A stretch of 64,000 nt of DNA, taken from NCBI GenBank assembly GCA_011364985.1, contig RDOC01000003.1:96001-160000 (forward strand), written 5' to 3'. Both the position numbers and the translations under genes were made by a program. Origin of the DNA: Candidatus Thorarchaeota archaeon. GTDB lineage: Archaea > Asgardarchaeota > Thorarchaeia > Thorarchaeales > Thorarchaeaceae. The number at the start of each line of letters is the position of its first letter. The first letter of the stretch is position 1. The notes under the pieces were generated by a model. The model saw only the letters and a list, made by a program, of their open reading frames with translations. It searched no databases and was not told where the DNA came from. Shown piece after piece: positions 36,667 through 38,571 of the stretch.

Positions 36667-37587
36667 TCATTCCGTTAAGGCTGCAATGACTAGCAAGGGA
36701 AATAGAATAGTGGCATCGCCAATTACGGTTTCAAAATTCGCATCCGCTTGAACCTTTTGCCATGAAACTCCTTCGACAAGCGGAGCTCCGCCAAGACTCC
36801 CACCTTCAGGACGGTCCAAGGTTATTTGGATTGCTAGGTCTAAGCCACCCCTTAAGATTGTGGATCCCATCGTGAAATGCTTAGTCAAGCCCCCGCCCAA
36901 GATGATTGCTCCCGTTCTCTCTGTTTTGGTGATGATGCTACCAAGGATACGTAGATCTTTCACAAAATCCAGGGAGAACTCCTTTGTAGTGCTATAAGTG
37001 AACATATGAAAACCAAGCATGGAGTCCATCAGACCAGGAGAGAAGATTGGAACTCCAGTTCTGGCTGCTTGGTAGATAATCGAGTGCTTATCGTCAATTG
37101 TGTTGCCAAGCTCTGCGATGAATTCGCTTGGTGAGAGCCCAGACCTCTTCTCCTTCGGCATGGAATCTAAGAACTCGTAGATTCTCTGCTCGAACACCTC
37201 AAAGTCCTTCTCAGACACCACAATATCAGCAATACGGCCCATCCCTGCCTCGCGCAGTTTGTAATCATCATCTTCTGGTGAAACCCTGTAATGACCTCCA
37301 CCATAGGCTTCAACAAGGTCATGCACAATATTGGCACCGCTGGTGACTATCGTATCAATATGGCCGTGCTCTACAAGATGACTAATCACATGACGAAGCC
37401 CTCCGGGGACCATGGGCCCCGACAGAGAGAGAAATTTGAAGCAACCATCATCCTTGAACATTCTCTCCATGATGGATTTCGCCCTTCCAAAACGCCCTGC
37501 TCCAAGGACTCCAACATCATGCATGGATTCGATGATGACCTTAATGTTACCTGACTGTGTGGGGTCGATATGCTGAACGCGCTGCAT
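36667..37587 (-). CDS. dys: Deoxyhypusine synthase
   Basis: SGPMVPGGLR, SGANIVHDL.EA, ILGGG..KH, GSLGGA...EGVSW.K, GDATI.FP. Confidence 0.93.
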   Translation of the reverse strand: MQRVQHIDPTQSGNIKVIIESMHDVGVLGAGRFGRAKSIMERMFKDDGCFKFLSLSGPMVPGGLRHVISHLVEHGHIDTIVTSGANIVHDLVEAYGGGHYRVSPEDDDYKLREAGMGRIADIVVSEKDFEVFEQRIYEFLDSMPKEKRSGLSPSEFIAELGNTIDDKHSIIYQAARTGVPIFSPGLMDSMLGFHMFTYSTTKEFSLDFVKDLRILGSIITKTERTGAIILGGGLTKHFTMGSTILRGGLDLAIQITLDRPEGGSLGGAPLVEGVSWQKVQADANFETVIGDATILFPLLVIAALTE

Positions 37588-37644
37588 AATAAGTCACTGA
37601 GAAAGCTGGTTTGTGAATTGGAGATAAGTCATTCGCAGGAAAAA

Positions 37645-37763
37645 TGGTGACACGGGTCTAGGCTATCCCGGGAGGGCAAGCCGTTCATTGCAAAGCGGAC
37701 AATTCTGGACATGAAACCCTCTGTCCTTCTAGGAACGGCACTGGAACCCAGACCCGTGAATCC
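37645..37763 (-). ncRNA. Putative structured ncRNA (~120 nt), family unrecognised
   Basis: 12-bp terminal stem CACGGGUCUGGG/CCUAGACCCGUG (G.U on minus strand, A.C on plus), inner GCCGUUC/GAACGGC and GGACA/UGUCC stems; ends UCACCA then T5. Confidence 0.6.
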
Positions 37764-37923
37764 AAAAGTGAATCAAGTAATAGAGAAGAGTGATGCGAGT
37801 TCACCTTTTCTAGAACCCGCAGTCTGTTTTCTTGAACAAGGCACTCGTGGAGAGAAGGGTGAAACTAATTAAGGAGTAGCCTTGTTCAATATCTTTAAAC
37901 ACGTAGGGGAGTGAACACAACTT

Positions 37924-38571
37924 ATGCAGGCCATTATTGAAATAGTCAGAGAGATGTTCGTGTACTTGATTCTCCTTGATGCTCTCTTCTTGCAAGGGGT
38001 ATGGATATATCTAGGGCGTAAGGGAGAAGAAGCCTATATTGATGATTTGATTAATTTCCGATCTCCAGACTCATCACTCTCACGTTTCTATGAATGGCGT
38101 GTATCAAACATTGCAAATGCAATCGCGGAGAGCATATTGTTCGTTGTTGTCCTGATTCTGACAATTATCGGACTGGCAGCACTTGCTGGAGATATTATGA
38201 TTCTTGAGCCTCTTGTGCCAGTTCTCATCTTCGTTGTATTCATGTCGTTGATTAGCGTTATACAAATGGTACGACGCATTGCATTCGCAATCGAAAAGGA
38301 GAAAGAAGTGTCAAAGCGTCTCAAAGCTGCGGAATTCAAGATCGAGACCGCTCAGAGCATTGTTGACGACCTTTCAAACCAAGGGCAGTTTGCGGATGGC
38401 AGGCTGTGGTTTGTATTATTCAGAATATCAAGGCGACAGGACCCAGTGGGATATGCTGTAAAAGATGTTCTGATAGAAAAGGGAAAGAGATTGCTCAGAC
38501 GTATTAAGGCAGAGGACGCGCGTAGAATGGCAGGGGCACCACCCTCCTCAGAGGGCCCAGGAATAGAATAG
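37924..38571 (+). CDS. Hypothetical membrane protein (3 TM plus soluble C-terminus)
   Basis: 215-aa ORF with hydrophobic helices; TTTAAA about 30 nt upstream. Confidence 0.7.
   Translation: MQAIIEIVREMFVYLILLDALFLQGVWIYLGRKGEEAYIDDLINFRSPDSSLSRFYEWRVSNIANAIAESILFVVVLILTIIGLAALAGDIMILEPLVPVLIFVVFMSLISVIQMVRRIAFAIEKEKEVSKRLKAAEFKIETAQSIVDDLSNQGQFADGRLWFVLFRISRRQDPVGYAVKDVLIEKGKRLLRRIKAEDARRMAGAPPSSEGPGIE

Follow-up and report, generated by a model that had tools for sequence, protein, structure and literature searches.

A family-wide hairpin RNA gene beside dys in Thorarchaeota, probably part of an Asgard Orc1-2-type damage regulon and scarred by an IS607 end in this genome

The structured segment at positions 37645-37763 of the window, a stretch of 64,000 nucleotides from a Candidatus Thorarchaeota genome (G000; other G-numbers denote genomes and L-numbers loci of the comparison set), is almost certainly composite: sequence comparison argues for a host hairpin RNA gene with the end of a transposon in its loop (Table 1), and the segment owes its odd architecture to a transposon scar. 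We consider it probable that the host gene is a family-wide small RNA within an Asgard version of the Orc1-2 damage regulon, with an IS607 scar in G000. Our best reading, which we hold with slightly more confidence than doubt, is that of a single-copy, damage-induced hairpin sRNA of about 70 nt that occurs throughout the Thorarchaeota, pairs via its C-rich loop, and here carries an IS607 right-end remnant.

The composite nature became apparent in a DNA search of relatives, which returned two kinds of match, one to the inner part and one to the flanks. The inner part has many dispersed copies in relatives (13 in G023 and 11 in G026), whereas the flanks match the dys-upstream site of G016, a genome of the same genus; that site lacks the inner part and shows compensatory changes in its outer stem. 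The site is also empty in most other orthologues. Synteny of the dys intergenic region extends across the family, with a usual length of about 260-280 nt; in G000 the region is 337 nt long, and excision in silico of 37746-37681 leaves a 70-nt hairpin with 14 contiguous pairs. DNA sequencing runs, possibly those of the source sample, carry the insert inside one contig, and pattern scans of metagenomes for close strains or further junctions yielded nothing useful. In source-like metagenomes the assembly graph branches at 37621-37654 (34 nt), with a depth of 42 vs 24-27, which suggests a second strain or locus.

The initial annotation had described a GC-rich island with nested stems of 12, 7 and 5 bp, a G-U asymmetry in favour of the minus strand, and a CCA plus T-tract end about 55 nt 5' of the dys start. 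These features were reproduced, the apical stem with 5-6 bp. The minus strand of 37640-37768 folds with an MFE of -50.6 kcal/mol (z -3.57; 1/200 shuffles as good; z -2.91 for the plus strand), and the rise in GC content is mild (0.56 vs ~0.45). What did not survive is the view of one entity of ~120 nt, given that the 7-bp and 5-bp stems belong to a 66-bp IS607 right-end insertion that is missing at orthologous loci; half of the structure called at first is the transposon end. The proposal of a novel sRNA is supported for the outer hairpin only, which is conserved, covarying and without Rfam match. The CCA is incidental, as it lies within 8 nt past the stem in only 8 of the 42 orthologues, and the predicted 5' end of the RNA is about 11 nt upstream of 37763.

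Table 1. Features of the dys-upstream locus, in coordinates of the window
Feature	Position	Strand	Remarks
Host sRNA gene	37640..37775	-	~70 nt without insert, ~136 nt with it; ends predicted
Stem 5' arm, conserved 12-bp stem	37747..37758	-	two-sided changes at 10/12 pairs, 92% of cells paired, 0/500 shuffles
IS607-family right end, 66 bp (putative TnpB omegaRNA scaffold: pseudoknot + hairpin), left end lost	37681..37746	-	multi-copy; empty site in G016
Loop motif GCCCUCCCGG, near-invariant	37668..37677	-	CUCCC 42/42, predicted unpaired
Stem 3' arm, conserved	37651..37662	-	covariation
Pyrimidine tract, probable terminator	37638..37647	-	83% pyrimidine across 42 orthologues; CCA 8/42
Deoxyhypusine synthase gene (dys)	36667..37587	-	PF01916, E 1.9e-93
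Separate BRE/TATA-like dys promoter (putative)	37623..37634	-	TTATC 39-40 nt before start
DDRE-like box, putative Orc1-2-type site	37850..37869	-	15/20 to consensus; matrix ranks in text
Second promoter element GT.C-N10-A(C/T), fixed spacing	37822..37837	-	T 41/42, C 37/42, A 42/42; also in nreA and dinB cassettes
BRE-like AA + weak TATA-like hexamer, sRNA promoter (putative)	37799..37810	-	AA 42/42, conserved hexamer
Divergent gene encoding 215 aa; no family match above cut-off	37894..38571	+	neighbour; TATA 37894-37899; not part of the RNA

The annotation had placed the RNA in no recognised family, and we agree: Rfam gave nothing credible for the window, for the region at E up to 10, or for 16 uninterrupted orthologues, and ARAGORN found no tRNA, whether introns were allowed or not. 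Nor is a tRNA-like nature supported, as there is neither a conserved CCA nor a T-loop. The archaeal SRP RNA was rejected, the genome's own SRP RNA being located at G000:C15:211334-211644. The suggestion of an H/ACA-like guide likewise gained no support, nor did that of a C/D guide, since neither an ACA box, a guide pocket, C/D boxes nor a K-turn or K-loop is conserved in the orthologue alignment, and duplexes between the loop and rRNA were no better than those of shuffles (23/40 and 17/40). Finally, the ~190-nt conserved stretch could not be taken as a single RNA, whether one resembling U3 (box A') or one resembling U1 (with an Sm site), because its first 100 nt are without consensus structure and recur alone before protein genes; a small 5' hairpin present in many copies was weakly supported (mean z -0.63).

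The homologue comparison that the initial annotation had proposed revealed both conservation and covariation in the outer 12-bp stem. Across 42 uninterrupted orthologues, two-sided changes occur at 10 of the 12 pairs, 92% of the cells are paired and 0/500 shuffles matched this result, a shuffle test that is inflated by relatedness and to which the pair-count measures are to be preferred as the robust ones; slid controls were all far lower. The changes include many G-C/G-U/A-U exchanges, and the frequent G-U pairs and one-sided exchanges point to a function at the RNA level. The loop reads CUCCC in all 42 orthologues with a mean unpaired probability of 0.89, and its motif GCCCUCCCGG is kept in all insert-bearing alleles. 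On this comparative evidence we are highly confident that the locus specifies an RNA whose stem covaries and whose C-rich loop is invariant. The locus model found it in 83 of 86 family genomes, including 23/23 high-quality ones, and most named records with a homologous locus bear the name 'Candidatus Thorarchaeota'. By the RNA-only model the RNA is essentially single-copy; in the 26 other families searched the model gave no convincing match, one weak hit of 22 bits being taken as chance. The outer hairpin would be a new RNA family, present in nearly all Thorarchaeota (Asgard archaea); neither this hairpin RNA nor an Asgard DDRE is described in the literature that we searched, the coverage of which was incomplete. 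Since the insert forms a fold of its own and disrupts neither stem nor loop, the RNA in G000 probably still works.

Right-end copies related to the insert are situated either directly after the end of tnpB (a TnpB of ~710-725 aa, PF07282) or at the close of miniature elements of ~190 bp, the left end of which matches the left end at IS607 transposase genes (NF033518 above cut-off). Left junctions read nGGG/TT (the slash marking the junction) in 12/12 intact copies and right junctions end in GG in 21 of 26; the window junctions, TGGG/TT and AACGG, obey the same rule, with insertion at GG after TGGG. IS607 elements have a GG core and a TGGG target and TAM (bioRxiv 2023.11.20.567912). In the window copy the right-end core begins just 2 nt after the target GGG, vs ~123-125 nt in intact copies. 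The insert has no intact left end and, by that criterion, is not a mobilisable element. The right end, to which the 7-bp and 5-bp stems belong, forms a pseudoknot and a hairpin. Of their 15 pairs, 7 have two-sided changes (0/500 shuffles), in a test that favours its own structure because the structure was drawn from the same sequences. An omegaRNA scaffold is expected at the right end of a TnpB element, and we infer that the right end is such a scaffold, ending at the element boundary with the guide next. In the G000 copy the first pseudoknot helix contains a mismatch and the flank is not duplicated; TnpB genes with this right end are present in G000.

The parent elements resemble IS607 elements such as CboIStron (bioRxiv 2023.11.20.567912) in their GG core, their TGGG target, a right end that closes in CGG and overlaps the tnpB stop, and a serine transposase TnpA with a matching left end. 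They differ from CboIStron-type IS607 in that only the 66-bp right end is left here, the parent TnpBs are of ~710-725 aa, no group I intron was seen and insertion into one host sRNA is repeated. One IS607 element of ~8.1 kb in the same genome (G000:C21:46736-54860, L156) comprises a left end, tnpA, cargo, a 720-aa TnpB and a right end, the cargo being a very large opposite-strand gene of ~1,700 codons. Oversized TnpBs (707-725 aa) are encoded at L143:2757-4883, L144, L145, G000:C17 and C21, and show weak matches to solved Cas12/TnpB structures. Elsewhere in the comparison set, the 16S rRNA gene of G034 (L087) has a repetitive insertion of ~100 nt just before its 3' end, possibly an intron or expansion.

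The ~100 nt upstream of the hairpin are conserved at fixed spacing and unstructured. They contain, ~95 nt upstream of the RNA, a 20-bp box that matches the Saccharolobus islandicus DDRE consensus at 15/20 positions in G000 and at a mean of 15.3/20 across the 42 orthologues, with the ANTTTC core present. In S. islandicus the DDRE is a 20-bp consensus that is bound by Orc1-2 and required for damage induction (PMC6061795). Several hairpin-less copies of the cassette occur in each genome, and such copies also exist in other families of the phylum; they stand before nreA (5 loci as well as G000), dinB (three loci by Pfam and two more by sequence), cdc6/orc1, a radA-like gene and several others, so that, on the evidence of these alignments, sRNA and DNA-repair genes have a promoter cassette in common. 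The box matrix was trained on dys-linked copies only, which makes the cdc6 genes an independent test: upstream of one cdc6 paralogue it gave 15-28 bits in 5/5 genomes, and upstream of the other its score was negative in 5/5. Genome-wide in G000 it ranked cdc6 1st, the sRNA locus 3rd and nreA 5th; a loose box pattern was enriched only about two-fold over control. The box-less cdc6 clade is of the Orc1-1 initiator type (340 bits vs 154 for the boxed clade), and the boxed, non-initiator paralogue is not of that type and is a candidate Orc1-2 counterpart. The box-to-ATG distance is 93-95 nt in all five cdc6 genes, and if these are leaderless, the sRNA start site would fall at ~37775, about 30 nt downstream of the BRE/TATA-like element.

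This arrangement is akin to the Orc1-2/DDRE regulon of S. islandicus (PMC6061795, PMC9738581), where a near-identical 20-bp box precedes repair genes and a non-initiator cdc6, a pattern of autoregulation. It differs in that the Thorarchaeota box stands 93-125 nt before start codons, vs 23-55 nt in Saccharolobus, and is accompanied by an extra conserved element; in that the putative targets include nreA and dinB, whereas S. islandicus shows no induction of the Y-family polymerase; and in that the cassette would drive a non-coding RNA, which is not described in PMC6061795 or PMC9738581. Across the phylum, DDRE-like boxes (for example in family f12, 19/19, and family f19, 6/6; G000:C15:98607 (L164), G000:C13:690 (L155), L121 and L135-L140) precede cdc6, nreA, dinB, radA-like, AAA ATPase and other genes, a candidate Asgard damage regulon. 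A second small RNA behind a DDRE cassette (L123:791-971, L124:824-1001, L126:822-1006) has two hairpins with CCCUU loops and no Rfam match, and is convergent with a neighbouring gene, which encodes a DUF3800 protein in L126. At L132:789-920 (G037, sister family) a DDRE cassette without ORF behind it is followed by a C-rich transcript with GCCUCCCG, possibly a diverged counterpart of the sRNA.

We propose that the non-initiator Orc1/Cdc6 paralogue would bind the DDRE-like box after DNA damage and thereby switch on the hairpin RNA along with nreA, dinB and the paralogue's own gene, and we consider this damage-triggered co-induction likely. The exposed CCCUCCC loop might then act as an anti-Shine-Dalgarno-like seed on G-rich ribosome-binding sites and damp the translation of several mRNAs. 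There is precedent in the actinobacterial 6C sRNA, which binds mRNAs via C-rich loops (PMC6486639) and which, as reported in PMC6789036, increases about two-fold in Corynebacterium exposed to mitomycin C. With 6C (PMC6486639, PMC5014011) the archaeal RNA has in common a small hairpin, an exposed C-rich loop and, presumably, a DNA-damage link; it is not a member of that family, having one CCCUCCC loop vs two poly-C loops, an archaeal host and no Rfam match. A target search at the start codons of G000 gave unremarkable best sites, and the exact complement of the 10-nt loop motif revealed no common second site or target in 26 genomes. With no conserved target and no rRNA complementarity above chance, loop pairing is the weakest step of the proposal, and we rate it, taken alone, at a little under an even chance.

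The main rival on mechanism keeps the damage-induced RNA and makes its loop a protein-binding or decoy motif, for instance for a poly(C)-binding KH protein, rather than an antisense seed. This would accord with an invariant loop for which no target was found, and with the two similar CCCUU loops of the second DDRE-driven RNA of some genomes, reminiscent of a multi-site sponge; however, no candidate protein emerged, a single site per RNA makes a poor sponge, and the motif is complementary to an SD-like sequence common before G000 genes. We regard a decoy as improbable. Another possibility is a role in cis, in which the hairpin, as leader or attenuator, would couple dys, and with it eIF5A hypusination, to DNA damage or polyamines via read-through from the upstream promoter. 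The hairpin RNA adjoins dys in every genome examined, on the same strand, and the linkage and the cassette are kept at L047 and L080, where the divergent gene was not found beside the locus; such strict linkage makes read-through possible, and the pyrimidine tract could be a regulated terminator. Yet the hairpin-to-dys distance varies from ~85 to ~570 nt, whereas the TTATC motif of dys stands 39-40 nt before the start in 29/31 genomes and stays with dys where ~470 nt part it from the hairpin. A promoter of its own at fixed distance makes a dys leader unlikely. Neither an antiterminator structure nor conservation of a ligand pocket was seen, and no conserved uORF is evident in the orthologue alignment, which has frame-breaking 1-2-nt indels. 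The polyamine-responsive leader of the initial annotation fares no better, the hairpin promoter being of the DNA-damage type. At L035, L038, L289 and L415 the dys promoter motif is interrupted by a different insertion, 40 to ~470 nt long, and at L035, L038 and L289 the motif is repeated after the insertion. Least probable is a palindrome acting at the DNA level or as a terminator only, without trans function: one helix alone is well supported, as such a palindrome would have it, but the frequent G-U pairs and one-sided exchanges imply RNA, and an invariant 7-nt loop and a dedicated promoter without ORF behind it would be unexpected for a bare terminator.

A further alternative concerns the insert. 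The IS607 right end lies inside the hairpin RNA gene in 8/86 genomes (G000; G013 and G014; G061; G194, G204 and G206; G209). These trace to about five independent events, with four or five insertion sites within ~45 nt, and a rough chance estimate, in which each genome has at most five copies and 10% of the DNA is permissive, gives <0.1 events expected. No inserted allele has lost the right end, the host stem or the loop motif, and the loop is predicted open in 6/7 folded alleles. In G204 and G206 a stem was rebuilt directly under the loop after insertion, which suggests continued selection. Left-truncated copies (L009, L258, L288, L411, L412) have 9-12-nt flank duplications that start at the GG core, possibly scars of aborted TnpB cut-and-copy repair or homing; none was found at ten intact miniature copies. 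The G000 locus could now be mainly a TnpB guide cassette, in which the damage promoter transcribes the right end and downstream host sequence as omegaRNA against the empty allele, so that a transposase-free remnant spreads by homing. The recurrent insertions, always with the right end kept, would agree with this, as would the self-contained covarying pseudoknot and hairpin, the site after TGGG (the published IS607 target and TAM; bioRxiv 2023.11.20.567912), the flank duplications confined to left-truncated copies, and the TnpB genes with the same right end in G000. Nevertheless, a full omegaRNA may require sequence within tnpB, the G000 copy has the helix mismatch and no flank duplication described above, pairing within the host stem would occupy the guide, and tolerance of a self-folding insert suffices to explain retention. 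We think this alternative unlikely, and we attach equally little weight to its extension, namely that the ~65-nt right end would be a complete compact omegaRNA scaffold, that its capture in a damage-induced sRNA would yield damage-inducible TnpB guides against the empty allele and transposase-free, right-end-only homing elements that spare the host RNA, and that the flank duplications would be archaeal homing footprints.

Sun et al. 2018 (PMC6061795) left open whether the Orc1-2 damage response extends beyond the Sulfolobales. With this box upstream of repair genes and of a non-initiator cdc6 in Asgard archaea, an Orc1-2-type response becomes directly testable in the closest prokaryotic relatives of eukaryotes. 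Moreover, the insertion hotspot provides natural alleles for the study of how TnpB/IS607 ends spread, and the hairpin would be, within the literature searched, the first sRNA to be placed in a damage regulon of archaea.
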